Below are positions 16,933 through 55,477 of a stretch of 64,000 bases of DNA, piece by piece. The notes beneath the pieces were generated by a model. That model did no database searches. It had not been told where the DNA came from and worked only from the letters and a program-made list of their open reading frames with translations. The stretch's first letter is position 1. Each line of letters begins with the position of its first letter. A program made the position numbers and the translations under genes. Source of the stretch: Candidatus Liptonbacteria bacterium (GTDB lineage: Bacteria > Patescibacteriota > Minisyncoccia > UBA6257 > 2-01-FULL-56-20); assembly GCA_016867315.1 (NCBI GenBank), contig VGJV01000003.1, positions 27,429 through 91,428 of the forward strand, in the 5' to 3' direction.

Positions 16933-17322
16933 ATGCGACGGCATTCACATGCCTCAATATGTGCAGGTTTAGCAGGCGTCCTGGCTCTAGGAGTAGCACT
17001 TATTTTTTATCTCCCGGCTCACGGAGCCGCAACGGTAACCTCGGCTACGGGTGGTACGTCGATTTCGGTGGACACCGTAGGCGGAAGTTATACGACGCTT
17101 ACCGGCCCCGTTGTAAGTGAGGGAGATGTAGGAGAAATAGAAGAAGGGAATATTATTTTGAATGCACCTGTAGGATTTGAATTTCGCACCACCGCGAATA
17201 GTGTGACCGCCACGCGTACTAACATCAATGGGGGCTCATGTACGGGTTCCGGCAATAAAGTATTAAAAATTGATAATGGCACCTCAGACACAGTTACTCC
17301 TACGACAATCCGAAGGGAATGA
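16933..17322 (+). pseudogene. N-terminal part (signal/anchor plus first domain) of a Thr/Ser-rich Ig-like surface protein; frame breaks near 17270-17322
   Basis: 129-aa ORF with a signal-anchor. The next ORF continues the same compositional theme in another frame, overlapping by about 50 nt. Confidence 0.45.
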
Positions 17323-37678: not shown

Positions 37679-38194
37679 ATGTCTACCTCCACTCCATTAC
37701 TCACGTCTGCAGACTTTTGGCTTTCGGTGCATACCGTTTTGGCCTGGATTTTTCTTGTGCTCGATCTCGCTCTTTTAGTGGGTTTCGTATATGCATTTAG
37801 AAAAATAATCAAATTTCGCCCGCACGAACTTAAACCTGGCGAACGTCACCCCACAGGAATGGCCTCTCCTCAAATAACGGTATTCCGCGAACGCTGGGAG
37901 GCAGTCATGCGGCGTTTCGATCTAAATTCTCCCGAAGCCATGCGATTTTCCATCCTCGAAGCTGATATCCTCGTAGACGCCATTCTTAAAGATTCCGGCT
38001 TAGAGGGAGAAAATTTAGCAGACCGCTTAGCCAAAGTAACCCCGGAAAGCATTCAAAGTCTAAATCAGCTTTGGAAATCTCATCGGCTGAGAAATAAACT
38101 TGCAGAAACAAGTGAGTATGAGTTGTCTGCCGAAGAGGCGCAATCTGCCATTCAAGGGTATGAAGCCTTCCTTAAGGAAATAAAAATACTTTAA
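37679..38194 (+). CDS. hypothetical small membrane-anchored protein (171 aa)
   Basis: One N-terminal TM helix (VLAWIFLVLDLALLVGFVYAF). Tightly spaced between 36287..37642 and the ATPase. Confidence 0.45.
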   Translation: MSTSTPLLTSADFWLSVHTVLAWIFLVLDLALLVGFVYAFRKIIKFRPHELKPGERHPTGMASPQITVFRERWEAVMRRFDLNSPEAMRFSILEADILVDAILKDSGLEGENLADRLAKVTPESIQSLNQLWKSHRLRNKLAETSEYELSAEEAQSAIQGYEAFLKEIKIL

Positions 38195-39766: not shown

Positions 39767-40285
39767 CTAGTGGTGTCCTCCTCCATGCCCGAGTTGGATC
39801 TCAGACTTCACGGCAGGATACACAATGTGGTGCACAAATAATCCAAGCGCTACTCCAAGCACTACGGAAAGAAGAAACTCGTTATAAGTTCGGATAAAGA
39901 AATAGTGGAAGGTTGCATAAAACACCAAGAAGCTCGCGCTAAAAATACTCCAACCCTTGAGTCGCGGGGGAATTACTTTTTTACCCCCGGAGAAGAGGAG
40001 AAAGGTGAGTATAGCGCCGGAGAACGCAAGCCAAAGGTCGAAGCCCCGGTAAATATCTCCGGCGGGAAATGCAGTTTTGAAAAAGCCGCTTACCTGATAA
40101 ATAAGTACGATAATGAAAAGGAAAAAACCTGCCCAAAACCCTCCTCGACTCGAAGCGCTCGCCCGTTTATCCGCAGTTTCAGCAGTGTGTTTATACACCT
40201 CCCATAGCGCCATTCCGAGGAGTGTAGGCACCAACCCCCAAATCACGAGATCAAATATGAACTTGAGCATCCCTTCCATGGCCAT
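39767..40285 (-). CDS. hypothetical 4-5 TM membrane protein with a His-rich C-terminus (…LGHGGGHH)
   Basis: 172-aa ORF on the minus strand. Hydrophobic helices. Confidence 0.45.
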   Translation of the reverse strand: MAMEGMLKFIFDLVIWGLVPTLLGMALWEVYKHTAETADKRASASSRGGFWAGFFLFIIVLIYQVSGFFKTAFPAGDIYRGFDLWLAFSGAILTFLLFSGGKKVIPPRLKGWSIFSASFLVFYATFHYFFIRTYNEFLLSVVLGVALGLFVHHIVYPAVKSEIQLGHGGGHH

Positions 40286-40565: not shown

Positions 40566-42320
40566 ATGAAAAATGAAGTGAGAAATTGTCAGAATTGTAA
40601 GTCTGATTTCACGATCGAAACGGAAGACTTCAACTTTTATCAGAAAATGCAGGTTCCGCCGCCCACATGGTGCCCAGATTGTCGGCTGGAGCGACGATTG
40701 GCATGGCGGAACGAAAGGGTGCTTTTTAGAAGAACGGACAGCATAACCGGCAAAACACTGCTCGCAGGGTTCCCGCAAGATGTGCCGTTTCCTATCTACG
40801 AACGAAACTATTGGTGGTCAGACGAGTGGGATCCGTTGCAATACGGAAGAGATTTCGATCCCTCAAGACCCTTCCTCGAACAACTGAAAGAACTAATGCA
40901 CACGGTGCCCTGGCCGAGCCGCAGTGTGATGTTCGAGACAAATTCGGAATATACGGATCAAGCCGGACATCTCAAAAATTGCTATCTTTGCTTCAACGCC
41001 GATTACTGCGAGAATTGTCTATATCTGGTCCGAGCGAATACCACCAAAGACACGCTGGATTCGCTGCAAGTTCAAAACTCCGAGCTTTGCTACGATTCGG
41101 TGCTCATCAACAAAAGTTTCCGCATGTTTTATTCATTCGACTGCGATGGCTCGAGTGATATGCATTTCTCAAAGCAGTGCGTGGGCTGTAATCACTGCTT
41201 CGGCTGCGTAGGGCTCCGAAAGAAAAGTTATCACATCTGGAATCAGCCTTATTCGAAGGAGGAATACGAAAAGAAATTGAAAGAAATGAACTTGGGCTCC
41301 CGCGCCTCGATCGAGGCCCTCAAAGCCGAAGCGCGTCGCTTTTGGCTCAAGTTCCCGTGCAAATACTACCGCGGGATTCGAAATATAGATTCGAGCGGAG
41401 ATATGCTTATCGATACAAAGAATGCCAAACAGTGTTACTGGGTAACGAATGCAAAAGACGTGCGCTACTGCCAAGATTTATACATCCAATCTGAAGACTG
41501 TTATGACTACACAGTCTGGGCAAATCATGGTACGCGGATTTATGAATGTCTCACCTGCGGCGAGGAAGTGCAGAACCTGAAATTTTGCTTCGATTGTTGG
41601 CCTGCCTGCCGAGATCTCGAATATTCCGTAGGCTGCCATTCGACTTCGGATTGCTTCGGCTGTGTCGGTTTGAAGAAAAAGCAATATTGCATACTGAATA
41701 AACAATATTCCAAAGAAGAATACGAAAAAATTCGCGAGCAGATTATCGCGCAGATGAAAGAAATTCCTTATGTGAATGAGAAGGGAATCGAATATAGGTA
41801 CGGAGAATTCTTGCCGACTGAATTTTCTCCTTTTGCGTATAACGAGACAATGCTTCTCGATGCGTTCCCACTCACTAAGGAAGAGGCGATAAAGAAGGGA
41901 TATCGCTGGCGGGATCCCGATCGCAAAGAGTATCAAACGACCCTTAAAGCTGCGGAGCTGCCGGATGCTATCAATGAAACAAAAGAAGAGATTACAAAGG
42001 AAATCCTCGAATGTGCAAAGTGCAAAAAAGCCTATCGAATTGTGGCGCCTGAACTCGCATTTCATAAGCGGCTCGAAATCCCATTGTCTGATATATGCCA
42101 AGATTGCAGGCATGCGGAACGGTTCACATTATTGAATTCTCCTCGATATTTCTCCAGGGCTTGCATGTGCGCCGGAGAAGCAGATGCCACGGGAGTGTAT
42201 AAAAATACCGCGACGCACTCACATGCAGGGCAGTGTCCCAGCAAATTTGAAACCGCGTATACTCCCGACCGCCCCGAGATTATCTATTGCGAAGAGTGTT
42301 ATCAAAAAGAAACCACTTAA
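40566..42320 (+). CDS. Cys-rich paralog family member 1 (584 aa), unknown function
   Basis: N-terminal C-x2-C-x21-C-x2-C-R (NCQNCKSDF…FYQKMQVPPPTWCPDCRLERR) and the WDP…YGRDFDPSRPF block. Two internal modules end C.GC.GL(R/K)KK.Y.I.N.QYSKEEYEK, followed by GEFLP…SPFAYNET. The C-terminus has C..C…YRI…FH…IP.S.IC.DCRH and a terminal C.C…NTATHSH…CP..FET.YTPDRPEIIYCEECYQ. Confidence 0.8.
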   Translation: MKNEVRNCQNCKSDFTIETEDFNFYQKMQVPPPTWCPDCRLERRLAWRNERVLFRRTDSITGKTLLAGFPQDVPFPIYERNYWWSDEWDPLQYGRDFDPSRPFLEQLKELMHTVPWPSRSVMFETNSEYTDQAGHLKNCYLCFNADYCENCLYLVRANTTKDTLDSLQVQNSELCYDSVLINKSFRMFYSFDCDGSSDMHFSKQCVGCNHCFGCVGLRKKSYHIWNQPYSKEEYEKKLKEMNLGSRASIEALKAEARRFWLKFPCKYYRGIRNIDSSGDMLIDTKNAKQCYWVTNAKDVRYCQDLYIQSEDCYDYTVWANHGTRIYECLTCGEEVQNLKFCFDCWPACRDLEYSVGCHSTSDCFGCVGLKKKQYCILNKQYSKEEYEKIREQIIAQMKEIPYVNEKGIEYRYGEFLPTEFSPFAYNETMLLDAFPLTKEEAIKKGYRWRDPDRKEYQTTLKAAELPDAINETKEEITKEILECAKCKKAYRIVAPELAFHKRLEIPLSDICQDCRHAERFTLLNSPRYFSRACMCAGEADATGVYKNTATHSHAGQCPSKFETAYTPDRPEIIYCEECYQKETT

Positions 42321-42321
42321 A

Positions 42322-44034
42322 ATGCAGAATATGAACTGCAAACACTGCAAAAAAGATTTTGCAGTCACTGCAGATGATCTACGGTGGTATGAAAAATTCG
42401 GAGTATGTATCCCAAAGCTTTGCCCACAGTGTCGGGCGCAGCGGCGGTTAGTCTTTCGAAACGAACGAAGCTTCTACAAGCGTCCCTGCGATAAGTGCAA
42501 AAAGGACGTGGTTTCGATGTATAGCCCCAACAAACCGTATACCGTGTACTGCCACGATTGTTGGTTTAGGGATGACTGGAATCCGCTTGATTTCGGTAGA
42601 GATTATGACTCCTCGCGGCCCTTTTTCGACCAGTTCAAAGAATTATGGGAAAAGGTGCCAAAAATTTCGCTTATCCATGTCCGGAGCGTGAATTCGGAAT
42701 ATCTGAATATCTGCGCCGATAATAAAAACTGCTACATGATTGTGGAATCTTCTAATAATGAAGATTCTATTCATTGCTATTGGATTCAAAAAACAAGGAA
42801 TTGTGTGGACACTTCTTTTTCCCATGAGTGCGAGCGCTGTTACGAATCGGACGACATTTACAATTGTTATCAAACACACTACAGCAAGGGGTGCCACGAC
42901 TGCCGGGATAGTTATTTTCTGTTCGATTGCAGAAATTGTTCTAATTGCATTGGCTGCGTGAATCTGCGCAACAAACAATATTGCGTGTTTAATGAACAAC
43001 TCTCCAAAGAGGAGTATCAAAAAATTTTGAAGGAAGCTCGACTCGACACTGCATCGGGCATAGAAAAATTGCGTGGCCAATTTGAAGAGTTTAAGAAAAA
43101 ACAGCCTCGCAAATTTGCGGAAGCGGTAAATGTAGTGAATTGCTCGGGGAATTATTTGAAGGATGCGAAAAACTGCAGCGACTGCTTCCATACATATGAA
43201 GCCGAAGACTGTAAATATGCGGTACACGCCTGGCGTGATGCGAAAGACTGCGTGGATACGGACACCACGGGCAGAGGAGTGCAGATGGTCTATAACTCGC
43301 ATAACACTGGCATCAATGCCTCGAATTGTATTTGCTGTGCGCTCTGCTGGGGAAACAACTTTCTTACTTACTGCGCGTATTGTTATGACTCACAAGACTG
43401 CTTTGCCTCCACCGGCCTCCGTAAAAAACAGCACTGCATTTTGAATAAACAATATTCCAAAGAAGACTACGAAAAACTCAAAACTCAAATTATTGCAGAT
43501 ATGAAACGCGAGGGCATATATGGGGAATATTTCCCGCCCTCCTTAAGCACGTTTGGATACAATGAGGCCTGTGTGCTCGAGCAAATACCGCTTATGAAAG
43601 AAGAAGCGCTCTCACAAGGTTTCAAATGGGAAGACCACCCTCGTGGCGCGTTCGGGAAAGAAACGGCAGGTTGGGAAAAAATTCCGGATTCTATCCTCGA
43701 GCTTCAATGCGATGCCTCCAAAGAAATTTTTGCATGTACTGCGTGTAGAAAAAATTATCGAATTATCTCTGACGAGCTTACGTTCTATAAATCGTTGGAA
43801 ATTCCCTCGCCGCGATTGTGTCCCGATTGCCGGCACGTGCGTCGCTTTACCGCGCGGGGTCCCAATCATGTAAAGGAAAAAAAATGTAGCTGCGAAGGTA
43901 TTAGAGCAGGGGGTTATCTGAATACTGCCAACACTTTCACGGAGAACATCCATGTCCTAACCGCTTTAAAACTGCCCATTATGAGGATTCCAATGCAATC
44001 CTTTACTGCGAAGAGTGTTATAACTCCGAAGTAG
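42322..44034 (+). CDS. Cys-rich paralog family member 2 (about 570 aa)
   Basis: Same architecture as member 1. The N-terminus has two complete CxxC…CxxC ribbons (NCKHCKKDF…CPQCR, CDKCKKDV…CHDC). The ORF track starts at 42184, overlapping member 1; the start is more likely at 42322 (MQNMNCKHC…). Confidence 0.8.
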   Translation: MQNMNCKHCKKDFAVTADDLRWYEKFGVCIPKLCPQCRAQRRLVFRNERSFYKRPCDKCKKDVVSMYSPNKPYTVYCHDCWFRDDWNPLDFGRDYDSSRPFFDQFKELWEKVPKISLIHVRSVNSEYLNICADNKNCYMIVESSNNEDSIHCYWIQKTRNCVDTSFSHECERCYESDDIYNCYQTHYSKGCHDCRDSYFLFDCRNCSNCIGCVNLRNKQYCVFNEQLSKEEYQKILKEARLDTASGIEKLRGQFEEFKKKQPRKFAEAVNVVNCSGNYLKDAKNCSDCFHTYEAEDCKYAVHAWRDAKDCVDTDTTGRGVQMVYNSHNTGINASNCICCALCWGNNFLTYCAYCYDSQDCFASTGLRKKQHCILNKQYSKEDYEKLKTQIIADMKREGIYGEYFPPSLSTFGYNEACVLEQIPLMKEEALSQGFKWEDHPRGAFGKETAGWEKIPDSILELQCDASKEIFACTACRKNYRIISDELTFYKSLEIPSPRLCPDCRHVRRFTARGPNHVKEKKCSCEGIRAGGYLNTANTFTENIHVLTALKLPIMRIPMQSFTAKSVITPK

Positions 44035-44118
44035 CATAGCCCTTCCCAAAACGTAAAACCTGTGGTAATGTAAAGACAGAAACCGTTCCTTTTAAAGGCC
44101 GAAAAACCATACTATCAA

Positions 44119-44427
44119 ATGGTTATTATCTATACTACGTGTAAGGATACGGCCGAAGCGACAAAGATCGGCAAGGTGATTTTGGACAGCAAATTGGCCT
44201 CTTGCGTGAACATCTGGCCCATCCAGAGCATGTTTCATTGGGAGGGAAAACTCGCTAATCAGCTCGAAGCCGGAATGCTGGTAAAAACCGTAGAACATCA
44301 CACTGCCGAGATCGAAGAATTGATCACGAAAAACCATTCCTATTCCGTACCTTTTATTGGCGTGATGCAGGTGCATCGCCATAATAGAGCGTACCGTGAA
44401 TGGATGAGTTCGGTGGTCAAACCATAA
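44119..44427 (+). CDS. cutA: divalent-cation tolerance protein CutA
   Basis: MVIIYTTCKDTAEA…SCVNIWPIQSMFHWEGK matches the CutA1 family. Confidence 0.8.
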   Translation: MVIIYTTCKDTAEATKIGKVILDSKLASCVNIWPIQSMFHWEGKLANQLEAGMLVKTVEHHTAEIEELITKNHSYSVPFIGVMQVHRHNRAYREWMSSVVKP

Positions 44428-45920
44428 TTTTTCAAATGAAGCTCGAGCTTATAAAAAAGCTCCCCACCGAAGGAGCAATAGTGTTTGTGATAAAAGAAGG
44501 AGTCTCTCTAAAGACACATCCATTTTTGAAGTTTCTCGGAGAGGAGGACAAAAAATATATCGAAACCGTCACGAATGCATCAGGTGCAAGTGGAATTTCT
44601 AATAAATTCTTGATTCTTCCCTCGGGAAGAAAAACTTTAATTATAAGTGTTCCTGCAAAAGATAAATTTACCGGCCGCAAAGCGATTCTCTCCGCCCGGC
44701 GGGTGATCGTGGCCGCTCGAAGTGAAAAACTGGCACAGATTGTCGTATTGCTCGAAGACTTTCAAGCCCGAACATCCCCGCAAGAAACCGCGACGATGCT
44801 TGGTACTCAACTGGAGATCGCCAATTTTGAATTTGTAGCATATAAAACTGCCCCTAAGGAAGGATGGAATTTTGTAGAAGAAGTCGGAGTATTCTCAAAG
44901 TACAGCCTAGAATCCTTACGCAAAGCGCTCGAAGCGGGAAAGGTAGTTGGAGAAGAAGTAAATGCGGCGCGAGTCCTCTCAAATACTCCTGGGGGAGATA
45001 TGACTCCTGCTGGCCTCGCTGAAGCAGCGCTCCAAGCCGGTAAAAAATCCGGGTTTAAAGTGACAATTTTGGATGAAAAAGAAATTACCAAACTCGGCAT
45101 GGGCGGCGTCTTGGGAGTCTCTAAAGGTTCCGTGGAAAAACCCCGCTTCATCGTCATAGAATACCTTCGCGGCAAAAAATCCGAAAAGCCGGTAGTGATA
45201 GTGGGAAAAGGAGTTACTTTCGATACTGGAGGATTGAACCTAAAACCCACGCAAGCGATCTATGAAATGCATATGGATATGTCCGGTGGAGCCGCCACAA
45301 TCCATATTCTCGGAGCACTCGCCCGGCTCAATGTAAAGAAAAACGTGATTGGGTTGGTACCTGCAGTAGAAAACATGCCCTCCGGTTCAAGTTTCCGCCC
45401 CGGAGACCTCTTAAAATCCATGTCGGGCAAAACCATTGAGGTAACGAATACTGATGCGGAAGGCCGAGTGATCCTCGCGGATGCCTTGGAATATGCCAAG
45501 CGTTACAATCCTCGTTTAGTAGTAGACATAGCTACGCTCACGGGCGCTGCGCTCGTAGCGCTGGGTCAACGAGCTTCTGCCATATTTTCGACCAGTGCTC
45601 CGGTAGAGCGTTCTCTTCGCGCAATTGGAGAAGAAACTGGAGATTTCGTCTGGCCGCTGCCCTTGTGGGAAGAATACGAAGAAGATATTAAAGGAATGTT
45701 CGGAGATTTTGCGAACTCCGGCAAGAGCCGCTGGGGAGGCGCGATTGAAGGCGCCGTATTCCTTCGCCAATTTATTCGCGACAAAGAAGGGAATGATGCA
45801 TATCCGTGGGTGCACCTCGATATTGCTCCCCGTATGACCTCGGTAGACGGAGAATTTCTGGCCAAGGGCGCCGCGGCTCCTTCCGTCGCCCTCCTCACGC
45901 AATTTTTGCGTGAATACTAA
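44400..45920 (+). CDS. pepA: leucyl aminopeptidase (M17 family)
   Basis: M17 signature NTDAEGRVILADAL, plus VGKGVTFDTGG and MDMSGGAA. The likely start is the M near 44430. Confidence 0.85.
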   Translation: MDEFGGQTIIFQMKLELIKKLPTEGAIVFVIKEGVSLKTHPFLKFLGEEDKKYIETVTNASGASGISNKFLILPSGRKTLIISVPAKDKFTGRKAILSARRVIVAARSEKLAQIVVLLEDFQARTSPQETATMLGTQLEIANFEFVAYKTAPKEGWNFVEEVGVFSKYSLESLRKALEAGKVVGEEVNAARVLSNTPGGDMTPAGLAEAALQAGKKSGFKVTILDEKEITKLGMGGVLGVSKGSVEKPRFIVIEYLRGKKSEKPVVIVGKGVTFDTGGLNLKPTQAIYEMHMDMSGGAATIHILGALARLNVKKNVIGLVPAVENMPSGSSFRPGDLLKSMSGKTIEVTNTDAEGRVILADALEYAKRYNPRLVVDIATLTGAALVALGQRASAIFSTSAPVERSLRAIGEETGDFVWPLPLWEEYEEDIKGMFGDFANSGKSRWGGAIEGAVFLRQFIRDKEGNDAYPWVHLDIAPRMTSVDGEFLAKGAAAPSVALLTQFLREY

Positions 45921-45941
45921 AATTAGGCTATTCTTAAAGGA

Positions 45942-47609
45942 ATGAGCTCGACTCGTTCCTGCAGGCAATGCAGGAACGCATTCTCTGTGGATGCTTCAGA
46001 CCTCTCATTTTATGAAAAAATGGGAGTTCCCGTGCCGGCACTCTGCCCCGAGTGCCGATTTCGACGTCGTGCCGGGTTTCGAAATGAACGCACGCTCTAC
46101 AAGCAAAACTGCAAACTTTGCGCCAAGTCGGTAATCACCATGTACAACCCAAAATCACCGCTTGTTGTGTACTGTAATGACTGCTGGGCTTCAGATAAAT
46201 GGGATCCGAGCGCATATGCGATGGAGTATGATCCTTCCCGCCCTTTCTTCGATCAGTTAAAAGAACTCTCTCAAAAAGTTCCTAAATCCGGAACGTATTC
46301 GAGTGCATGGGCAGGTCCGAATGTAAGAAGTGAATACACTAACTTCGCGGGGAGTAATAAAGACTGTTATCTTTGCTTTAATTCAGGCCCGGAAAATGAA
46401 AATTGCGCCTATTCCAGAGGCATCATGCGTTCGCGGGATACATTCGATACCTACTACGGTTATGAAACCGAAAGGGGATATGAGGGAATAAATATGCAAA
46501 AAAGCTCAGGTGTTGCCTGGGGACAAAATATCCTCGAATGTCTCGATTCCTGGTTTCTTTTGAACTGTGCGAGCGTCCAAAATTGCTTTGGATGTGTGAA
46601 TCTGCGTCATAAATCGAATGCCTTCCTAAATGAGCCTCTTGAAAAAGAAGAGTGGAAACGAAAAATTTTAGAAATTACCGGTAGCTATCAAAGAATTGAA
46701 GAATTTAAAAAACAATTTCAGGAACATGCACTCAAATTTCCGCGGCGAGAAAATAATAATTTGAAATCAGTTGATTGCACGGGGGATTACATATTCGAAT
46801 CCAAAAACTGTCATGACTCATTTGAGGTGGGTAATGGAGAAAATTTGAAATATGTGTTCTCTGTAAAGTTCACCAAAGACAGTTATGACTTAATTGGACA
46901 CGGGCGGAATTCTGAACTGCTGCTTGAGGGAGTGGGAGCCGGAGCAAGTCAGCGCATCATAGCCGGTTGGTGGATAGAAAATGCCCATGATGTGGAATAT
47001 TCTTTTGCGACGCGCGCGAGCGAATATTGTTTCGGCTGCGACGGAATAAAAGGAGGGAAGTATCGGATATTAAATAAGCAGTATTCAGAGGAAGAATATA
47101 AGAAACTTCGCGCGCATATTATAGAAGAATTGAAAAACATCGGAGAATATGGGCTCTTTTTTCCGCCCTCGCTCTCGTTTTTCGCATATAACGAAACCAT
47201 CGGACAGGACAATCTGCCGCTCTCCAAAGAAGAAGCTATCCGACAAGGCTTCCGCTGGGAGGAAAATCTTCCCGCCACGAAGGGTCAGGAAACACTAAAA
47301 GCGGAACAACTCCCGGATCACATTAAGGATGTGCAGGATTCGATTTTGAGCGAAATTCTCGCTTGTATTTCCTGCGGTCGGAATTATCGGCTTATCAAGC
47401 CGGAGCTAGAAGCATATCGACGAGCACTAATTCCCATTCCAAGAAAGTGCTTCAATTGTCGGCACCTAGATAGACTGACTCGCCGGGGCCCGTTTAAATT
47501 ATTCGACCGCACCTGCGCAAAGTGTAATAAAGCAATCCGAACCAACTACGCTCCAGAACGACCCGAAATTGTGTATTGCGAGACTTGTTACCAAAATGAA
47601 GTTATATAG
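45942..47609 (+). CDS. Cys-rich paralog family member 3 (555 aa)
   Basis: SCRQCRNAFSVDASDLSFYEKMGVPVPALCPECRFRRR, a second ribbon CKLCAKSV…CNDC, the KWDPSAY..EYDPSRPFFDQLKEL block, CFGCVNLRHK, ILNKQYSEEEYKK, FFPPSLSFFAYNETI and C-terminal CISCGRNYRL…CFNCRH…IVYCETCYQNE. Confidence 0.8.
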   Translation: MSSTRSCRQCRNAFSVDASDLSFYEKMGVPVPALCPECRFRRRAGFRNERTLYKQNCKLCAKSVITMYNPKSPLVVYCNDCWASDKWDPSAYAMEYDPSRPFFDQLKELSQKVPKSGTYSSAWAGPNVRSEYTNFAGSNKDCYLCFNSGPENENCAYSRGIMRSRDTFDTYYGYETERGYEGINMQKSSGVAWGQNILECLDSWFLLNCASVQNCFGCVNLRHKSNAFLNEPLEKEEWKRKILEITGSYQRIEEFKKQFQEHALKFPRRENNNLKSVDCTGDYIFESKNCHDSFEVGNGENLKYVFSVKFTKDSYDLIGHGRNSELLLEGVGAGASQRIIAGWWIENAHDVEYSFATRASEYCFGCDGIKGGKYRILNKQYSEEEYKKLRAHIIEELKNIGEYGLFFPPSLSFFAYNETIGQDNLPLSKEEAIRQGFRWEENLPATKGQETLKAEQLPDHIKDVQDSILSEILACISCGRNYRLIKPELEAYRRALIPIPRKCFNCRHLDRLTRRGPFKLFDRTCAKCNKAIRTNYAPERPEIVYCETCYQNEVI

Positions 47610-47622
47610 AGACCGAATAAGT

Positions 47623-47657
47623 CGAAGTCCCGCCATAGCTTTAGCGAAGGAGGATGA
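47623..47657 (+). promoter_or_regulatory. conserved 35-nt intergenic element, copy A (cgaagtcccgccAtagctttagcgaaggaggatga)
   Basis: 34 of 35 positions identical to 53318-53352. It lies downstream of paralog member 3. Confidence 0.5.
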
Positions 47658-47681
47658 AAGCTGCTACCAGCAGGAAGTGGT

Positions 47682-49361
47682 ATGGGACAGAAAATAGAAA
47701 TGAATGCTGAGATAAGAAATTGCAGAAGCTGCAAGCAAGACTTCACGATTGAACCGGACGATTTCACGTTTTATTCAAAAGTTGGAGTGCCCGCGCCGCA
47801 CGATTGTCCGGTGTGTCGTCAGCGTCGGAGGATGATTTTTCGAAATTTCAAGACGCTCTACAAGCGAAACTCCGATCGTTCTTCAAAGCCGATGATCTCG
47901 ATGTATGCTCCGCACGCATCATACAAGGTTTTCACCCACGATGAATGGTGGGCGGACAATTGGGATGCTCGGCAATATGGCCGAGACTTTGATTTTTCGA
48001 GACCATTTTTTGATCAATTTAAAGAACTTCTCCTTGCGGTGCCAAAGATGAATTTGGTAAGTGTTCAAAGTGAAAATTGTGAATACTCTAATTTTGCGTG
48101 GAAGAGCAAAAGCTGCTATCTCGTCTTCGGCTGCGTAGATAACGACACGTGCGCATACGGTCACATTGTTTGGGAATCGAAAGATTCTGTAGATAATCTC
48201 TATCTTTATAAATCTGAGCTTTGTTTTGAATGTGTGGATTGTTTATGGAGCTACGGCTTACTCTGGTCTCAAGAATGCGAGAGTTGCAGCGAGAGTATTG
48301 GGCTTTTCGACTGCCGGAGCTGTACCAACTGCATAGGTTGCGTAGGTCTAAAACAAAAGTCCTACCACATATTCAATCAGCCGGTAAGTAAAGAAGAATA
48401 TGTAAAGTTTTTAGCCGAGCATCCGCTTACCGATCCAAAAACACTTCCATATATTCTGGAAAAACAGCGTGAATTGAGGCGTCAAATACCTCAACGTCAT
48501 TTTTTTGGCTCACATAATAATGCGGTATCAGGAAATCACATATACCATGCAAAAAATGTGCGCTATTCCTTCGACGTAAAGGGAGGAGAAAACTCTAAAT
48601 TTGCATATACGACCCGCAAAGTAGTAGATGGCTATGATGTCGCGTTCTCACCAGACATAGAACTCGCATATCAAGCGCTCACCTCGCGCGGGAACGGGAT
48701 CTACTTCGCGCATATGAATTACGAATGCAGTGATATCTATTATTCGGATAGCTGCCAAAATGTGCATAACGCGTTTGGCTGCGCGGGGCTCAAGGGCGGA
48801 GAATATTTGATTTTGAATAAACAGTATTCAAAAGAAGAATACGAAACACTAGAAGAGAAGATCGTCGAGCATATGAAGAAAACAGGGGAGTGGGGAGAGT
48901 TCTTCCCGGCGACTCTTTCACCGTTCGCATATAACGAGTCCATCGCGCAGGAATATTTTCCACTAAGAAAGGAAGAAGTCCTCGCGTCGGGCTTTCGGTG
49001 GGAAGAAAATATTCCCCGCACTTCCGGACAGGAAACCATCTCTCATGATGCGCTTCCGAAAAATCCTGCCGAATTCGACGCAGATTCACTTTTAAAACAG
49101 GTTTTGAAGTGTGACAGTTGTGGTTACAATTTCCGTTTCACCGCCCAAGAAATTCCATTTTATAAACGATTAAATCTCCCCTTGCCCCGCAATTGTTTTA
49201 ACTGCCGTCACGAACGTCGCATGAAACAGCGAAATATACGTAAGCTATGGGATGGAAGCTGCGCGAAGTGCAATACAAAGTTTCAAACCTCCTACTCTCC
49301 GGAGCAGCAAAAGGAATTTAAAGTTTACTGCGACTCCTGCTATCTTCAAGAAATGGGTTAG
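47682..49361 (+). CDS. Cys-rich paralog family member 4 (559 aa)
   Basis: NCRSCKQDFTIEPDDFTFYSKVGVPAPHDCPVCRQRRR. The second N-terminal ribbon is degenerate (Cys lost). CIGCVGLKQKSYHIFNQPVSKEEY, LILNKQYSKEEYE, SPFAYNESIAQEYFPL and C-terminal CDSCGYNF…CFNCRH…KVYCDSCYLQE. Confidence 0.8.
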   Translation: MGQKIEMNAEIRNCRSCKQDFTIEPDDFTFYSKVGVPAPHDCPVCRQRRRMIFRNFKTLYKRNSDRSSKPMISMYAPHASYKVFTHDEWWADNWDARQYGRDFDFSRPFFDQFKELLLAVPKMNLVSVQSENCEYSNFAWKSKSCYLVFGCVDNDTCAYGHIVWESKDSVDNLYLYKSELCFECVDCLWSYGLLWSQECESCSESIGLFDCRSCTNCIGCVGLKQKSYHIFNQPVSKEEYVKFLAEHPLTDPKTLPYILEKQRELRRQIPQRHFFGSHNNAVSGNHIYHAKNVRYSFDVKGGENSKFAYTTRKVVDGYDVAFSPDIELAYQALTSRGNGIYFAHMNYECSDIYYSDSCQNVHNAFGCAGLKGGEYLILNKQYSKEEYETLEEKIVEHMKKTGEWGEFFPATLSPFAYNESIAQEYFPLRKEEVLASGFRWEENIPRTSGQETISHDALPKNPAEFDADSLLKQVLKCDSCGYNFRFTAQEIPFYKRLNLPLPRNCFNCRHERRMKQRNIRKLWDGSCAKCNTKFQTSYSPEQQKEFKVYCDSCYLQEMG

Positions 49362-49405
49362 AAGCAGTAACTCATCTACTAAGTATGCGATCGCTTAAGT
49401 AGTAG

Positions 49406-51160
49406 ATGAATCTCATAATGAACAATCAAATAAAAAGCTGTCAAAACTGCAAAAAAGACTTTGTGATTGCCCCGGAGGACTTTCAATTTTACGAACGTAT
49501 AAAAGTTCCGGCGCCGACGTTCTGTCCCGATTGTCGTCTCCAAAGACGCATGGCTTTCAGGAACGAACGAAGTTTATATAAAAACATTTGCGCACTTTGC
49601 AAAAAACAGTTTGTTTCGATGTATTCGCCAGACAAACCCTTTATAGTCTACTGCAAAGAATGTTGGTATTCGGATAACTGGGATCCGCTGCAATATGGTC
49701 AGGATTATGATTGGGATAAACCTTTCTTCGAACAGTTTCGGGAATTGATGCTTAAAGTTCCCAGAATCGGGATCATGCACATTCGCAACAATATCAATGC
49801 CGATTATGCGAACTATATCTCCGCAAGCAAGAATATTTATCTTTCTCAGTCCGTTATAGAAGGCTCAGAAAATATTTACTACTCTCGAAGTATAGATCGA
49901 AGCAAAGAAATCTTTGATTGTTTTAATGTCAAAGATTCCGAACGATGCTATGAAAATGTGGATGGTGGGAGAAATTATCGCTCGAAATTTCTGGTACGAT
50001 CGCGGGATTGCATTGATTCCGCATTTCTTTTCGACTGCGTGAACTGTCAGAACTGCATAATGAGCGCGAATCTGCGCAATCGGCAATATGTAATCCGCGG
50101 GAAACAATATTCAAAAGAGGAATATGCCACAGCCTTGGAGAAAATCGAATTCGGTAAACAAAGCGAAATTGAAAAATTAAAACAGGAATTCGAAAATGTG
50201 ATGGAAAAAGCCCTGCATAAATTCGCTAATATCACCAAATCAGTAACCTCAACGGGAGATAATATCGATAATTCTAAAAATGCGGCTTACCTCTTTGACG
50301 CATATAACTGCGAGAATGTGCGGTACGCGGCTAGGGCAATAGGATGTAAAGACTCCTACGATATCATGGGAGGGGCAAATCTCGAACTTGTATATGAACA
50401 GATGGCTGGTGGTTACGGAAGCAGAAACTCCTTAGCGTTAAGTCATGGGGAAGTGACGCTTGAGAGTAACTACACAGACTGGTGTCAAAGTTCCTCAAAT
50501 CTTTTCGGTTGCATATCACTTCGAAAGAAACAGTATTGTATTTTGAATAAGCAATATTCAGAGAAGGAATATAAGGAGTTCTATCCAAAGATTATCGAGC
50601 ATATGAATACAATGCCTTTCGAAGATAGAATGGGAAGAATGTACCGTTACGGAGAATTTTTCCCAATTGAGATTAGCCCATTCGCTTATAACGAGACGAT
50701 CGCAGAAGAATATTTCCTCCTCGCGAAGGAAGAAATTATGAAAAAAGGTTATACGTGGAGAGAACTCGATCCACTTCCGTACGTGCCCACTGTAAAGGGA
50801 AAAGATTTACCCGACGATATTGCGAATGTGGAAAATTCAGCAACCAAAGAATTGATAGAATGCGAAAATTGCAAACGAGTGTATCGAATAGTACAGCCGG
50901 AACTTGAATTTCTTCGGCGCGAACAAATTCCCTTACCGAGAACTTGCCAAGAATGCCGACACGCAAAAAGATTGACTCTCCGCAATCCCCTTAAATTATG
51001 GTCTCGAAAATGTATGTGTGACTATAAGGTATGGAAGAACACTGCGAAGCATGTCCATCATCCGGAAGATCGATGTTCAAACGAATTCGAAACGAGTTAT
51101 TCTCCAGAAAGGCCGGAGGTAATATATTGTGAGCAATGCTATCAAGCAGAAATTAGCTAG
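49406..51160 (+). CDS. Cys-rich paralog family member 5 (584 aa)
   Basis: SCQNCKKDFVIAPEDFQFYERIKVPAPTFCPDCRLQRR, CALCKKQF…CKECW, CQNCIMSANLRNRQYVIRGKQYSKEEY, CILNKQYSEKEYKE, SPFAYNETIAEEYF and C-terminal CENCKRVYRI…CQECRH…VIYCEQCYQAE. Confidence 0.8.
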   Translation: MNLIMNNQIKSCQNCKKDFVIAPEDFQFYERIKVPAPTFCPDCRLQRRMAFRNERSLYKNICALCKKQFVSMYSPDKPFIVYCKECWYSDNWDPLQYGQDYDWDKPFFEQFRELMLKVPRIGIMHIRNNINADYANYISASKNIYLSQSVIEGSENIYYSRSIDRSKEIFDCFNVKDSERCYENVDGGRNYRSKFLVRSRDCIDSAFLFDCVNCQNCIMSANLRNRQYVIRGKQYSKEEYATALEKIEFGKQSEIEKLKQEFENVMEKALHKFANITKSVTSTGDNIDNSKNAAYLFDAYNCENVRYAARAIGCKDSYDIMGGANLELVYEQMAGGYGSRNSLALSHGEVTLESNYTDWCQSSSNLFGCISLRKKQYCILNKQYSEKEYKEFYPKIIEHMNTMPFEDRMGRMYRYGEFFPIEISPFAYNETIAEEYFLLAKEEIMKKGYTWRELDPLPYVPTVKGKDLPDDIANVENSATKELIECENCKRVYRIVQPELEFLRREQIPLPRTCQECRHAKRLTLRNPLKLWSRKCMCDYKVWKNTAKHVHHPEDRCSNEFETSYSPERPEVIYCEQCYQAEIS

Positions 51161-51221
51161 CGATTTATGAAATAAGATTTATGATTTAAGAATCATACAT
51201 AAATCCTGAATCGTAAAATCA

Positions 51222-51518
51222 ATGCATTTCCGAATCGACAACGTAGGCGATAATATGAACACCGTCATGCGCCGGATAGGGTACACGCCCATCCGGTGGA
51301 CGGAAAAAGGGGAGTTGAACTGCGTCCGGCCGCTTCAAGGGCAGGACTACCCTCGTTTTCATGCGTATGTAAAAGAAGAACGCTTCACGCTAATTTTCAG
51401 CCTTCACCTGGATCAAAAGCGTCCTTCCTACGGCAATGAAACCGCACACAGTGGCGAGTATGAAGGAGAAATAATTCAAGAAGAAGCACGGAGGATTCAA
51501 AAGATCTTGAGCTTCTAG
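51222..51518 (+). CDS. hypothetical protein (98 aa) embedded in the paralog array
   Basis: ORF only. It sits between members 5 and 6 and ends 3 nt before member 6 starts. Confidence 0.35.
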   Translation: MHFRIDNVGDNMNTVMRRIGYTPIRWTEKGELNCVRPLQGQDYPRFHAYVKEERFTLIFSLHLDQKRPSYGNETAHSGEYEGEIIQEEARRIQKILSF

Positions 51519-51521
51519 AAA

Positions 51522-53309
51522 ATGGAGAACAGAATTTCAGAAAATCGGGATTGCCAAAATTGCAAACAGCAATTCACGATCGCTCCGGAAGATTTCGCAT
51601 TCTACGAAAAAATCCAGGTTCCACCGCCCACGTGGTGTCCGCGCTGCCGCAACATCCGACGGATGGCTTGGAGAGAAGAGGGCCATGCACTCTATCGGGA
51701 CACGTGCAAGCTTTGCGGCAAAAATATTATCACCATTCATGCGCCGGGACCGTTTACGATATATTGCCGAGAATGTTACAGGTCGGATAAATGGGACCCG
51801 TTGAGTTATGGGAAAGAATACGATTTTAGCATGCCCTTTTTCGCTCAATACCGGAAACTCATGGAAGAAGTGCCTCGACCGGCCCTCACCGGAATAAATA
51901 TCGTAAACAGCGAATTTACGCACGGCTGCAAGGGCGTAAAAAACTGTTATTTCTGTTTCATGAGCTATTTTTCCGAAGACTCGCAGCATAGTTATTTACT
52001 TCTTCTCTCTCGCCACGCGTATGATTCATACGTAACTGATAACTCAGACCAAGTGTACGAAACTCTCCATTCGAACCGGCTTTATAAGGTCGCGTTTGGA
52101 TACTTTGCAGATGACTGCTTAGAGTCCACATTTTTATATGATTGCATAGGCTGTTCGGATTGCTTCGGTTGTGTAAATCTCCGCAAACAAAAATATTGCC
52201 TTTGGAATAAACAACTTTCAAAGGAGGAGTATCGAAAACAAAAAGAATATTGGGATCTTGGGAGTTTTACTCGGTTAGAGGAAGCAAAGAAGAAGTTTCG
52301 GGAATTATATCTCTCGCTTCCGCATAAATATGCGCATGTAGTAAGCAGCCAAAATGCCACCGGAGATATTATCAGAGATACAAAAGACTGTGAGAAATGT
52401 TTTTCCGCCCTTGATGGCGTGCAAAATTGCAAATATGTCTATGTGGGGGGATTGAATTTAAAAGATAGCTACGATGTGAGCGGAGGAGGGGATACTGCCT
52501 CTCTTCTCTACGAGATTCTTGGTACAACGGAAGCACAGCGCTGCTTTTTTGCGAACGGCAGTTCCGGTTCGCAGGATATTATGTATTGCGATTGGGTAAA
52601 TGATTCCTCTCACGTTCTTGGAAGTATTGCCTTGAAACATAAAAAGTATTGCATCTTGAATAAGCAATATGAGAAGGAGGAGTATGCCCAAATGAAGGCC
52701 AAAATAATCGAGCATATGCACTCGATGCCATATGTGGACAAAAAAGGACGAGTCTATAAATTTGGAGAATATTTTCCCACCGAGCTTTCCGCATATGGAT
52801 ATAATGAAACATTCGGATTCTTCTGGTACCCCAAAACCAAAGAAGAAGTTCTAGAAGAAGGATGGAACTGGCATGATCCTCAGAAAAAGTCTTATGAGGT
52901 GACATTGAGACTCGAGGACATCCCTGACCATATTAGAGACATTCCCGATTCCATACTCAAAGAAACCATTGAGTGCGCACATGGAGGAGCGTGCAACGAA
53001 CAATGTACCACCGCGTTTCGGATCACTCCCGAGGAACTCGCCTTTTATAGAGACATGCGGATTGCCCTGCCTAGACTTTGCCCCAATTGCAGAAACTTCC
53101 AAAGAATTCACTGGCGAAATGGCTATGATTTATTTAAACGGAAATGCATGTGCGTCGGCATGCAGAATAAGGATGAGAATAAGTATAAAAATACTGCATC
53201 TCACTTTCATGGAGATGGCTTTTGCCCCAACGAATTCGAAACCACCTTCTCTCCTAAGCAACCGGAAATAATATATTGCGAAGCATGCTACCGCCAAGAA
53301 TTTATATAG
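51522..53309 (+). CDS. Cys-rich paralog family member 6 (595 aa)
   Basis: DCQNCKQQFTIAPEDFAFYEKIQVPPPTWCPRCRNIRR, CKLCGKNI…CRECY, CFGCVNLRKQKYCLWNKQLSKEEY, CILNKQYEKEEYAQ, and C-terminal ECAHGGACNEQCTTAFRITPEELAFYRDMRIALPRLCPNCRNFQR…IIYCEACYRQE. It is most similar to member 7. Confidence 0.8.
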   Translation: MENRISENRDCQNCKQQFTIAPEDFAFYEKIQVPPPTWCPRCRNIRRMAWREEGHALYRDTCKLCGKNIITIHAPGPFTIYCRECYRSDKWDPLSYGKEYDFSMPFFAQYRKLMEEVPRPALTGINIVNSEFTHGCKGVKNCYFCFMSYFSEDSQHSYLLLLSRHAYDSYVTDNSDQVYETLHSNRLYKVAFGYFADDCLESTFLYDCIGCSDCFGCVNLRKQKYCLWNKQLSKEEYRKQKEYWDLGSFTRLEEAKKKFRELYLSLPHKYAHVVSSQNATGDIIRDTKDCEKCFSALDGVQNCKYVYVGGLNLKDSYDVSGGGDTASLLYEILGTTEAQRCFFANGSSGSQDIMYCDWVNDSSHVLGSIALKHKKYCILNKQYEKEEYAQMKAKIIEHMHSMPYVDKKGRVYKFGEYFPTELSAYGYNETFGFFWYPKTKEEVLEEGWNWHDPQKKSYEVTLRLEDIPDHIRDIPDSILKETIECAHGGACNEQCTTAFRITPEELAFYRDMRIALPRLCPNCRNFQRIHWRNGYDLFKRKCMCVGMQNKDENKYKNTASHFHGDGFCPNEFETTFSPKQPEIIYCEACYRQEFI

Positions 53310-53317: not shown

Positions 53318-53352
53318 CGAAGTCCCGCCGTAGCTTTAGCGAAGGAGGATGA
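53318..53352 (+). promoter_or_regulatory. conserved 35-nt intergenic element, copy B (cgaagtcccgccGtagctttagcgaaggaggatga)
   Basis: It lies downstream of paralog member 6 and upstream of ATPase copy 2. Confidence 0.5.
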
Positions 53353-53494
53353 TGCCTGTTATAAAGCCGAATTTCTATAGATGAATAATTTTTTCTGGCG
53401 TCTTAGGAAATATAAATATCTTCTGCGAATCCTCTGGCAACAGGTAATGTTCAGACTAAAGATAGTTATTCGGAAACTATTTAAATAGGCGTCT

Positions 53495-55477
53495 GTGGCG
53501 ATACATAACATCAAACATCCCTACAAAAAGGTGGCTCCAACTGCCCCGTTGTGGCATAATTTGGAAAGCGCAGACGCGCAACCCAAAAAAATGGGCTTCG
53601 AACCAGAGAAAGACGTCATCTATTTCGGCCGTACCGATTTCCGGAACACCAACCGGCTTTTTGGCATCAAAAGGAATGATCGCCGTCAACATGTCTACGT
53701 TGTCGGTAAAACCGGTACCGGTAAAAGTGTTCTTTTGAATAATATGATTGTGCAGGATATGGCGAACGGCGAAGGACTTGCCGTCGTCGATCCGCACGGA
53801 GAATTGGTGGAAGGGATCTTGGAAAAAGTCCCCGAGGATCGCATTGATGATGTAATTTATTTCAACCCGGCGGATATCGACTCTCATATTGGTTTTAATG
53901 TACTCGAACTTCCCGATCCGAAATACAAACACCTGGTGGCTTCGGGACTCATGGGCATTTTCACTAAGATTTGGGAGAATGTCTGGTCTGCAAGAATGGA
54001 ATATATCATGAATAACGCCATATTGGCGTTGTTGGATACTCCCGGTTCCACACTTTTAGGAATCACGAGAATTCTCGTAGACAAAGATTACCGACAGCAG
54101 ATCATTGCAAACATCAAAGACCCGGTGGTAAAGGCGTTCTGGGTTCATGAATATGAAACATGGCGTGACCAGTTCCGAAACGAAGCTATTGCTCCGATTC
54201 AAAACAAAGTAGGGCAGTTCCTTTCGACCGCACTCGTACGAAATATTGTGGGGCAGCAGCGGAGCACGATCGATATTTTCAATCTCATGAACGAAGGGAA
54301 AATATTTCTCATAAACGTCTCTAAGGGAAGAATCGGGGAAGATAACTCTGCGCTTTTGGGAGCCATGCTCATCACAAAGATGCAGCTTTCTGCAATGGAA
54401 CGTATCCGCGTACCCGAAGAAGAACGCGTGGATTTCTTCCTTTATGTCGACGAGTTTCAGAATTTTGCGACTGATTCATTTGCTGGGATATTGTCCGAAG
54501 CCAGAAAATATCGCTTGGATCTTATCCTCGCACATCAATACATAGGACAATTAGTAACTGATGTCTCGACTAAAGTGCGGGATGCGATCTTCGGAAACGT
54601 AGGAACGATGATCATCTTCCGTGTGGGCGCGACCGATGCGGAATTTTTGGAAAAAGAATTTGAGCCGGAATTCACTCCTCAAGATATAGTAAACCTCCCG
54701 AACTACGCGATTTACTTGAAGCTTATGGTGGATGGAGTAACCTCAAGACCTTTTTCAGCCTCGACACTTCCTCCTTTTAAGGTGGCGACCTCCGAAATGA
54801 CGAAGGAAATGATTATTAAAAACTCGCAAAAGCGATATGCGAGGCCCAGGGGAGTGGTAGAGGAAGAAATAAACCGATGGAGTGGCGTAATGACTACCGC
54901 AGAAGGTGCCCCCACGCTTCCCACGCAAAGTAAGGAGGGCGCATATCTCGCGACGTGCTCTTCCTGCGGTAAAACCACTACGGTTCCATTTGCTCCGGAT
55001 CCATCACGCCCAATTTACTGTAAAGACTGTCTGAATCGCGTGAAGGCCGGAGAGGTATTGCCAGTAAAACTCATGCCAAGATCGAAAAAAGTTCGGGATT
55101 CTTCGAAAGATGCGCTCGCAGCGGTAGGTATCGAATTTGCAGTAGAACCCAAGAGCGAAGAAGAGGTAGAAGAAGAAACCACTCCTGAGGCAGAAACCGA
55201 AGAGGCTGCCGCAACCACTCCTGCTGAAATTACAAAAGCCGAACAAGAAACAGAAAAATCGGAAGAAGCAGCGGAATCTACCCCCGAAGAAACCGCTCCG
55301 AAAGCCGAAGAGGCCAAACCGCAAACGAAAGGAATTTCGCTTTCTGAACTCAAACCCCCGAAGAAGACTCCAAAAATGAAAGAGCGCACTGCTCCGGAAA
55401 TAGATGTGGAGGAATTACGCAAATCCATCGCGGCTTCCCTTGATCAAATTTTAAGCAAAGACGAAGAGAAAAAATGA
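53495..55477 (+). CDS. soluble TrwB/TraD/VirD4-type P-loop ATPase, copy 2, with a C-terminal zinc ribbon and an acidic low-complexity tail
   Basis: Paralog of 38239..39705 (LFGIKRNDRRQHVYVVGKTGTGKSVLL…VVDPHGELVEG; Walker B FFLYVDEFQNF; LILAHQYIGQL). The extra C-terminus carries CSSCGKTTTVPFAPDPSRPIYCKDC, then an E/T/A/P-rich tail. Confidence 0.7.
   Translation: MAIHNIKHPYKKVAPTAPLWHNLESADAQPKKMGFEPEKDVIYFGRTDFRNTNRLFGIKRNDRRQHVYVVGKTGTGKSVLLNNMIVQDMANGEGLAVVDPHGELVEGILEKVPEDRIDDVIYFNPADIDSHIGFNVLELPDPKYKHLVASGLMGIFTKIWENVWSARMEYIMNNAILALLDTPGSTLLGITRILVDKDYRQQIIANIKDPVVKAFWVHEYETWRDQFRNEAIAPIQNKVGQFLSTALVRNIVGQQRSTIDIFNLMNEGKIFLINVSKGRIGEDNSALLGAMLITKMQLSAMERIRVPEEERVDFFLYVDEFQNFATDSFAGILSEARKYRLDLILAHQYIGQLVTDVSTKVRDAIFGNVGTMIIFRVGATDAEFLEKEFEPEFTPQDIVNLPNYAIYLKLMVDGVTSRPFSASTLPPFKVATSEMTKEMIIKNSQKRYARPRGVVEEEINRWSGVMTTAEGAPTLPTQSKEGAYLATCSSCGKTTTVPFAPDPSRPIYCKDCLNRVKAGEVLPVKLMPRSKKVRDSSKDALAAVGIEFAVEPKSEEEVEEETTPEAETEEAAATTPAEITKAEQETEKSEEAAESTPEETAPKAEEAKPQTKGISLSELKPPKKTPKMKERTAPEIDVEELRKSIAASLDQILSKDEEKK

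Follow-up and report, generated by a model that had tools for sequence, protein, structure and literature searches.

The closest analogies to the locus described here would seem to lie in two kinds of bacterial secretion system: those of type IV (T4SS), where a type IV coupling protein (T4CP; VirD4, TrwB or TraD) may be encoded next to an array of effectors, as with VirD4 and the tandem Bep genes of Bartonella, and those of type VII (T7SS), where the FtsK-like ATPase EccC and the membrane protein EccE accompany tandem, paralogous substrates (Esx/PE/PPE). For Patescibacteria, a survey recorded 5,713 VirD4-like T4CP homologs in 2,918 genomes, about two per genome; only 148 of these lay near virB4, and the homologs were considered by the authors to be possibly 'exapted for other functions' (PMC12102498). 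We have analysed a 64-kb stretch of DNA (hereafter the window), a core-chromosome segment of a metagenome-assembled genome (MAG) of Candidatus Liptonbacteria (candidate phyla radiation, CPR/Patescibacteria), which encodes seven paralogous, cysteine-rich proteins of a single family. Six of the genes form an array between those of two VirD4/TrwB-like ATPases, one short and one long. An earlier note on this DNA had proposed a functional link between the array and the ATPases, together with a rapidly diversifying, effector-like or defence-associated nature for the family. The association with the ATPases proves to recur across many Paceibacteria genomes; the paralogs, conversely, are ancient. Our findings therefore point to an old, very large and unstudied family of ultra-small bacteria, encoded between highly conserved ATPases, as part of an undescribed cellular machine rather than as a fast-evolving defence or effector family.

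The seven open reading frames (ORFs) lie on the forward strand and encode proteins of 555-595 amino acids which can be aligned end to end (MAFFT) with 60 invariant columns. Their pairwise identity is 33-45%, so that synonymous sites are saturated. The single architecture ascribed to them in the earlier note was thus correct, as were its ORFs with the exception of one start: the ORF listed at 42184..44034 overlaps member 1, and the true start of member 2 is at 42322 (MQNMNCK), 1 nt past the member 1 stop. Intergenic gaps in the array measure 1, 21, 72, 44, 61 and 3 nt, and the array is interrupted, as had been reported, by genes for CutA, the M17 peptidase PepA and a 98-aa protein. Together the seven family genes occupy 12.1 kb, or 19% of the window. 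Member 5, to which all residue numbers refer, matches NCBI protein MBM3257216.1 (locus tag FJY98_02710) at 100% identity. In member 2, a frameshift hits the codons of 'NTA[K]HFH' (43921-44039); the shifted frame reads HFHGEHPCPNRFKTAHYEDSNAILYCEECYNSEVA up to a stop codon, regaining the canonical C-terminal finger and ending at 44039. Either the assembly is at fault here or pseudogenisation, limited to the last finger, has set in very recently.

An intergenic repeat of 44 nt (CGAAGTCCCGCC[A/G]TAGCTTTAGCGAAGGAGGATGA...), whose two copies are 89% identical, is found at 47623-47666 and 53318-53361, directly 3' of the member 3 and member 6 stops, with a GGAGGA-ATG motif inside. The repeat could serve as a regulatory or ribosome-binding-site-sequestering element. 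A promoter and terminator scan was uninformative, with promoter-like sites no more frequent than chance.

All members follow the domain order A-B-repeat 1-helix-repeat 2-alpha/beta-A-B, where A and B denote two types of cysteine finger and the alpha/beta domain is acidic. Comparison by hhalign of slices from a 63-sequence alignment revealed homology between the two type-A fingers (zfA1 and zfA2; probability 98.9%, E 2e-17), between the two type-B fingers (zfB1 and the final C-terminal motif, zfB2; 95.9%, E 5e-9) and between repeat modules 1 and 2 (residues 118-245 and 270-395; 99.7%, E 5e-27). The internal duplication, and the likeness of the C-terminal ribbon to the N-terminal one, had both been perceived from the sequence and are substantiated by these comparisons. 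The type-A finger is a treble-clef with an arginine-rich helix (near-invariant R44, R47, R48, R52, R518 and R522), and all four of its cysteines are invariant in both copies (C12, C15, C40 and C43; C486, C489, C514 and C517), leaving A1 and A2 intact in all seven paralogs. Finger B1 possesses its full set (C62-x2-C65-x17-C83-x2-C86) in four members (2, 3, 5 and 6) but has degenerated in the other three (1, 4 and 7); a cysteine count thus agrees with the losses described for the second ribbon. Finger B2 (C536, C538, H549, H551/552, C557, C575 and C578) is intact in six of the seven, frameshifted member 2 being the exception. Its CxxC-x17-CxxC spacing is canonical in members 3 and 4, while the others carry an insertion in the first half (C-x-C...Y.NTA.H.H...C).

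Repeat module 1 is closed by a cysteine cluster (C202, C211, C214 and C217, with or without C220) and module 2 by a weaker one (C360, C369 and C378). The C211-x2-C214-x2-C217 portion of the first is not invariant, member 3 lacking C214. Identification as a radical SAM or 4Fe-4S ferredoxin-type enzyme was rejected, given no Pfam or NCBIfam match and no motif of the kind CxxxCxxC or CxxCxxCxxxCP; the earlier note had named a radical SAM or other named enzyme as an identity that would overturn its interpretation, and no match of this kind was found. Zinc binding by the fingers would be expected from their motifs, and from the example of the small CxxC-x17-CxxC proteins of M. mazei, which bind zinc as determined by inductively coupled plasma mass spectrometry (PMC12704099). 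Binding of nucleic acids or of protein partners through the basic fingers would be plausible.

Both repeat modules display a hydropathy period of 12 residues (autocorrelation 0.45 and 0.43 at lag 12), amounting to about eight units each, and are predicted to be beta-solenoid-like; in the modelled structure of member 5 they are built at moderate confidence (pLDDT 57-70). The nearest known counterparts of such modules are narrow beta-solenoids, among them the Tenebrio antifreeze protein with its 12-residue coils, left-handed beta-helix enzymes and the curli protein CsgA. In accordance with the earlier prediction of cytoplasmic proteins, no TM-like (transmembrane) segment is present in any of the seven members (maximum 19-residue hydropathy <=1.15), nor is the N-terminus hydrophobic. 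Column entropy across 201 family members is lowest at the ends (A1 1.39, B2 1.60, A2 1.79) and highest in the linker (2.57), followed by the bodies of the repeats (2.25-2.32). Hence the ends of these proteins are best conserved, and the repeat bodies and linker are the most variable.

Database searches failed to place the family in any known kind, in keeping with the earlier note, which had been unable to assign it to a characterised family. Outside the fingers, residues 88-480 (about 390 of 584) found no match in Pfam, NCBIfam or PADLOC, whether searched within whole proteins or as isolated domains. A PDB profile search returned 0 matches at E up to 10, and Foldseek against the PDB returned nothing at E <=0.001. 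The fingers are faintly recognizable, all their scores falling close to the model cut-offs or under them. Five of the seven paralogs match zf_Tbcl (PF13451; type A), with a best E of 1e-5, the isolated zfA1 of member 5 scoring 22.6 bits against a gathering cut-off of 24; a precomputed PF13451 annotation exists on some homologs (P0029). The CxxC-x17-CxxC spacing of the type-B finger fits zf_Tbcl_2 (PF23477) and TIGR04272, with a best E of 3.6e-5, although scores (15.5 and 17 bits for isolated fingers of member 5) do not reach the curated cut-offs of 27 and 36 bits. Proteins of the zf_Tbcl type differ in being small single-domain proteins or in bearing the finger as a C-terminal tag, whereas in this family four fingers frame some 390 residues for which Pfam has no model.

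The family is nonetheless large. A word-indexed search gave at least 7,987 matches, and a profile search run exhaustively over 1.84 billion cluster representatives gave 2,269 clusters at E <=1e-30, nearly all of them full-length proteins of 545-600 aa; the family thus comprises no fewer than 2,269 clusters at 50% identity. No fewer than 577 relatives were confirmed in GTDB representative genomes, from Nomura-, Giovannoni-, Lipton-, Jorgensen-, Staskawicz-, Sungii- and Paceibacteria-type MAGs, and in other genomes arrays reach 12 copies in 22 kb. Names given at source are limited to 'hypothetical protein' and 'zinc-binding domain-containing protein', along with 'CxxC-x17-CxxC domain-containing protein', and we found no description of the family in the published literature. 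It is a Paceibacteria-wide, uncharacterised family. One family-bearing contig, JAMPXW010000002.1 (locus L018), is labelled Burkholderiales; its gene order is a typical Paceibacteria one (layout II, below) and the label is likely due to mis-binning. A single family protein (P0093) is labelled Woesearchaeota.

The paralogs of the window are ancient, because each is closer to a gene in another genome (47-70% identity) than to its best paralog in its own (40-44%). Members 1-5 and 7 have reciprocal best matches in other arrays; orthologs of member 3 in loci L008, L030 and L027 are 64-70% identical, and that of member 4 in L001 is 65% identical. In some lineages, lineage-specific duplicates have been added, as in L054, where paralogs are 50-58% identical to each other. 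Across the same genome pairs, family orthologs are 45-66% identical, to be compared with 63-65% for DnaK, 58-60% for PepA, 62-72% for TrmD, about 40% for DnaJ, about 33% for GrpE and 37-56% for ComEC. Divergence of the family is, on this sequence comparison, housekeeping-like rather than rapid. At the DNA level the paralogs share no long near-identical tracts, only motif-coding stretches of 60-77% identity, so that there is no sign of recent duplication or of the gene conversion that had been envisaged.

The ATPases which bracket the array represent two subfamilies, one short (about 490 aa) and the other long (650-765 aa) with a C-terminal CxxC-x17-CxxC finger, followed in the window protein by an acidic tail. 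Both match TrwB_AAD_bind (E 8.8e-16 for the long ATPase and 2.2e-8 for the short), T4SS-DNA_transf, TraG-D_C and DUF87 in Pfam. They combine Walker A (GKTGTGKS or GKSGVGKT) and Walker B (YVDEFQN) motifs with the P-loop nucleotide-binding domain and all-alpha domain looked for in a T4CP. The closest solved sequence is TrwB, the match being restricted to the surroundings of Walker A. The finger of the long ATPase scores above cut-off against both zf_Tbcl_2 (50.2 bits; cut-off 27) and TIGR04272 (53.5 bits; cut-off 36), and this finger type is common to the ATPase and the family. Identity between genomes amounts to 78-83% for the short ATPase and to 72-93% for the core of the long one, in both cases above that of DnaK (63-65%) in the same pairs. 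Constraint of this order is unusually strong for a T4CP-like protein (38239-39705 and 53495-55477; loci L003-L162).

Upstream of the short ATPase gene, a DUF8128 membrane protein is encoded for which PF26449 was the only match in PDB and Pfam sequence searches at E up to 10. Its predicted model resembles the VirB4 N-terminal domain and EccE in fold. The machinery around the family is a derived relative of type IV and type VII secretion ATPase modules, and the pair of short and long ATPases fits, in number and in type, the orphan VirD4 homologs of the survey, for which it is a candidate (PMC12102498).

Gene context was assessed in about 165 loci, comprising 84 anchored on the family (GTDB), 80 anchored on the ATPases (metagenome) and two anchored on DUF8128; for the first set, ORFs were called and neighbours clustered. 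The commonest neighbour of the family is the VirD4/TrwB-like ATPase (38 genes in 27 loci), ahead of DnaK (23), a PaaX-like regulator (18), GrpE (12), DnaJ (11) and CutA (11). Of these ATPase genes, 23 of 38 directly adjoin a family gene on the same strand, mostly with gaps of 1-63 nt. From the ATPase side, 29 of the 43 loci of at least 10 kb possess a family gene inside 8 kb, and 29 of the 89 ATPase genes with both neighbours visible adjoin one directly. In a genome of some 1,000 genes, among them 7-12 clustered copies, we infer that a gene picked at random would by chance adjoin the family in a few percent of cases at most. Both DUF8128-anchored loci read DUF8128, small TM protein and short ATPase, then four or five family genes. 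All three anchorings reveal the same tight and repeated association of the family with a T4SS-derived set of ATPases.

Two layouts recur. In layout I, that of the window, a Sigma-r4/HARE-HTH gene is followed by those for DUF8128, the small TM protein, the short ATPase, (CutA and PepA), the array, the long ATPase, TrmD and ComEC; its leading segment, from Sigma-r4/HARE-HTH to short ATPase, is found in L012, L017, L032, L053, L057, L069, L094, L095 and L166. Layout II reads S9, GrpE, two family genes, the PaaX-like regulator on the opposite strand, DnaK, long ATPase, two family genes, short ATPase and DnaJ. In array-less loci the genes of the two ATPases are direct neighbours (L094, L112, L147 and L161); arrays thus occupy the interval between the short and the long ATPase gene, whichever of these comes first. 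The PaaX-like regulator (170-190 aa) of layout II is placed between the family genes and dnaK, directly upstream of the latter, as at 11710-12249 (-) of L003 and in 17 other loci.

Several further genes travel with the array. CutA is found near the family or the ATPases in 13 of the 80 ATPase-anchored loci as well as in the 11 family-anchored ones, and PepA occurs inside the L001 array and in nine of the 80 ATPase-anchored loci. A counterpart of the multi-TM protein of the window follows the short ATPase gene in L099 and precedes the long one in L106. Homologs of the 98-aa protein are encoded beside family genes in L007 (7299-7592), L027 (10045-10338) and L064 (142-435); this protein, with its conserved motifs (GELNCVRPLG.DYPRFH...HLDQKRPSY...AHSGEYE), found no match in Pfam, NCBIfam or PADLOC.

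How might the family and the ATPases be connected? We tentatively favour a model in which the family proteins would serve a T4SS-derived ATPase module as clients, whether cargo or adaptors, and would interact with it physically. The module would consist of the DUF8128 membrane protein, the small TM protein, the short ATPase and the long, paralogous, finger-bearing ATPase with its acidic tail, the ATPases being presumably located at the membrane. The conserved, finger-bearing ends of the family proteins would dock them to this motor, leaving the variable repeat bodies to carry paralog-specific function. The motor could then translocate the family proteins as cargo, by analogy with T4CPs and their effectors or with EccC and the substrate arrays of the T7SS, or else employ them as adaptors. 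Extreme conservation of the ATPases is what the client model would lead one to expect, since a hub must accommodate many partners. The likeness to T4CPs with effector arrays extends to the P-loop ATPases themselves and to the tandem, paralogous proteins, devoid of signal peptides, that are encoded beside them; the family proteins have what is looked for in a substrate, lying next to a secretion ATPase and having no Sec signal peptide. Actual translocation as cargo is possible but doubtful.

A number of observations weigh against the client model. The functional evidence is gene context throughout, and the loci are phylogenetically related, so that the counts are not independent. Unlike T4CPs, neither ATPase has an N-terminal TM domain or any hydrophobic N-terminal segment, and against curated NCBIfam T4CP models they score 43-56 bits where cut-offs are 250-650; T4CP systems also differ in that two paralogous ATPases, both more conserved than DnaK, are present per locus here. 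No channel genes (VirB6, VirB8), pilin genes, mating-pair formation (MPF) genes or relaxase genes were seen in the window, including near the array. The family proteins bear no recognisable secretion signal and no Pfam match to BID or WXG/YxxxD/E-type domains; they terminate in a zinc finger whose last residue is acidic. The presence of no fewer than three intact Cys4 fingers per protein, together with conserved, housekeeping-like orthogroups, would be unusual for secreted effectors. About one third of the ATPase loci are without a family gene within 8 kb. Finally, in many genomes the family genes are embedded in grpE-dnaK-dnaJ, which could point to proteostasis instead.

An alternative which we consider rather unlikely is that of an intracellular nucleic-acid machine, the arginine-rich fingers binding DNA or RNA and the ATPases acting as DNA translocases on imported DNA, in segregation or at the nucleoid. 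TrwB-family ATPases are DNA-dependent motors, and those of this locus also show a weak match to the 'DNA-translocating ATPase' CedD. The type-A fingers, with their near-invariant arginines, are basic (pI 9.1 and 9.5), the long ATPase bears a finger of the family type, and ComEC is encoded one or two genes past the long ATPase in layout I and in 13 of the 80 ATPase-anchored loci. Against this, taken as a whole the proteins range from acidic to near neutral (pI 5.9-8.1), Pfam and NCBIfam scans found no known DNA- or RNA-binding domain, and an EccE-like DUF8128 membrane partner is better suited to export machinery. Furthermore, comEC of Southlakia is neither essential nor tied to T4SS function (PMC12857230).

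The setting within heat-shock genes raises a further possibility: the family proteins might be stress-regulated, cysteine- and zinc-rich holdases, or zinc or redox buffers, co-expressed with GrpE-DnaK-DnaJ and CutA, with ATPases of an unfoldase-like function. It would account for the recurrent order 'GrpE FAM FAM X179< DnaK ATPase FAM FAM ATPase DnaJ', for the frequency of the chaperone and CutA genes among the family-anchored loci, and for the 27-44 cysteines of each protein. We nevertheless regard it as improbable. In the window, hrcA-grpE-dnaK-dnaJ is intact and lies 8 kb from the array, and the synteny seen elsewhere may simply reflect a conserved block of the core genome; ATPases of the FtsK/TrwB type are not known as chaperones, and the many conserved non-cysteine motifs and fixed architecture of the family argue for a specific structural function.

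Another conceivable reading is that of a hetero-oligomeric scaffold, with paralogs occupying fixed positions in a filament or ring, their solenoids stacked end to end (cf. CCT, MCM and bactofilin) and the ATPases assembling or remodelling the whole. Old, conserved orthogroups of uniform length and architecture would suit a scaffold, as would solenoid-like repeat modules and fingers whose only matches of this kind are weak ones to MCM zinc-finger/OB domains; to our minds it is equally improbable. The rapidly diversifying defence or effector family of the earlier note, shaped by positive selection and gene conversion, is largely refuted and hardly credible: in its favour are the tandem arrangement of the genes, the variable cysteine loss that affects the second finger and the repeat caps, and some lineage-specific expansion (the L054 paralogs), but genes of other genomes are closer than own paralogs, orthologs at 45-66% identity diverge much as housekeeping proteins do in the same genome pairs (about 64% for DnaK, 59% for PepA and 40% for DnaJ), near-identical DNA tracts are missing, no viral relatives were found among IMG/VR contigs, and the genes are set in the core chromosome among uvrC, dnaB, cysS, secDF and ftsW. 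A defence island was likewise rejected on grounds of conservation, context and the PADLOC search, in which the family, the small TM protein, DUF8128 and the 98-aa ORF matched no model and the ATPases gave nothing beyond weak mad8/HerA matches.

The features of the locus are collected in Table 1. Elsewhere in the window, uvrC, a G6PD-6PGD fusion, dnaB, cysS, corA, hrcA-grpE-dnaK-dnaJ, two tRNA-Lys genes, secDF, trmD, comEC and ftsW are encoded. The fusion, at 6669-9095, is an 808-aa protein of glucose-6-phosphate dehydrogenase and 6-phosphogluconate dehydrogenase domains, after which a bacterial PGI is encoded. The hrcA-grpE-dnaK-dnaJ operon is canonical except for a 340-aa multi-TM ORF without family match between dnaK and dnaJ (30329-31351). 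Two further large ORFs, at 13914-15743 (609 aa) and 17270-18937 (555 aa), have no Pfam match.

Table 1. Positions of the ATPase module, the family genes and the genes interspersed with them, numbered from the first letter of the window
Feature	Position	Strand	Basis
Sigma70 region 4 + HARE-HTH protein; conserved next to module on its upstream side (layout I)	35166..36215	+	Pfam
DUF8128 (PF26449) membrane protein, 451 aa; predicted fold VirB4 N-terminal-domain/EccE-like	36287..37642	+	
Small single-TM protein, 171 aa; always between DUF8128 and short ATPase	37679..38194	+	Sequence, synteny
Short VirD4/TrwB-like ATPase, 488 aa; lacks TM segment and zinc finger	38239..39705	+	Pfam, Walker motifs
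Multi-TM protein; opposite strand to array	39767..40285	-	Sequence
Family member 1, 584 aa; zfB1 degenerate	40566..42320	+	
Family member 2; 1-nt frameshift near 43929-43932	42322..44039 in corrected frame (as read ends 44034)	+	
CutA1; recurrent in neighbourhood	44119..44427	+	Pfam E 1.4e-28
PepA leucyl aminopeptidase (M17); recurrent in or beside arrays	44400..45920	+	Pfam E 1.7e-108
Family member 3, 555 aa; C-terminal finger with canonical CxxC-x17-CxxC spacing	45942..47609	+	
Family member 4, 559 aa; zfB1 degenerate, C-terminal finger canonical	47682..49361	+	
Family member 5, 584 aa; reference for numbering and structure model	49406..51160	+	
Conserved 98-aa protein; no assigned function, recurs within family arrays	51222..51518	+	Homologs
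Family member 6, 595 aa	51522..53309	+	
Long VirD4/TrwB-like ATPase, 660 aa; acidic tail preceded by C-terminal finger (CxxC-x17-CxxC, aa 484-516)	53495..55477	+	Pfam, TIGR04272
Family member 7, 592 aa; detached from array, after ftsW, zfB1 degenerate	61104..62882	+	

The finding is more interesting at the level of a system than as a simple array of paralogs. The seven genes take 19% of the window, and arrays of as many as 12 are found in other genomes with a total size of about 1 Mb or less; for genomes so reduced this is a very large investment. Here is a family with thousands of members that is nevertheless nameless, lacks a structure and, over 390 of its 584 residues, a domain model as well, and on which we could find no paper; it is encoded between two ATPases that appear to be the 'orphan T4CP homologs' left unexplained by the 2025 survey of Patescibacteria T4SS. 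Should the link between the two be true, it would provide a concrete and testable set of partners for the orphan ATPases, and a candidate mechanism for host interaction or nucleic-acid handling in Paceibacteria, both of which are open questions in this mostly uncultivated diversity. It is tempting, if speculative, to consider that Paceibacteria possess an unrecognised core machine, in which a membrane-anchored motor of two ATPases serves 7-12 ancient zinc-finger/solenoid paralogs as clients, these being delivered to the host or the cell surface or forming a nucleoprotein-handling complex. Such a machine may or may not exist, and we hold it to be a bold proposal with the odds against it; if true, it would account for the 'orphan' VirD4 homologs, of which each Patescibacteria genome carries roughly two.

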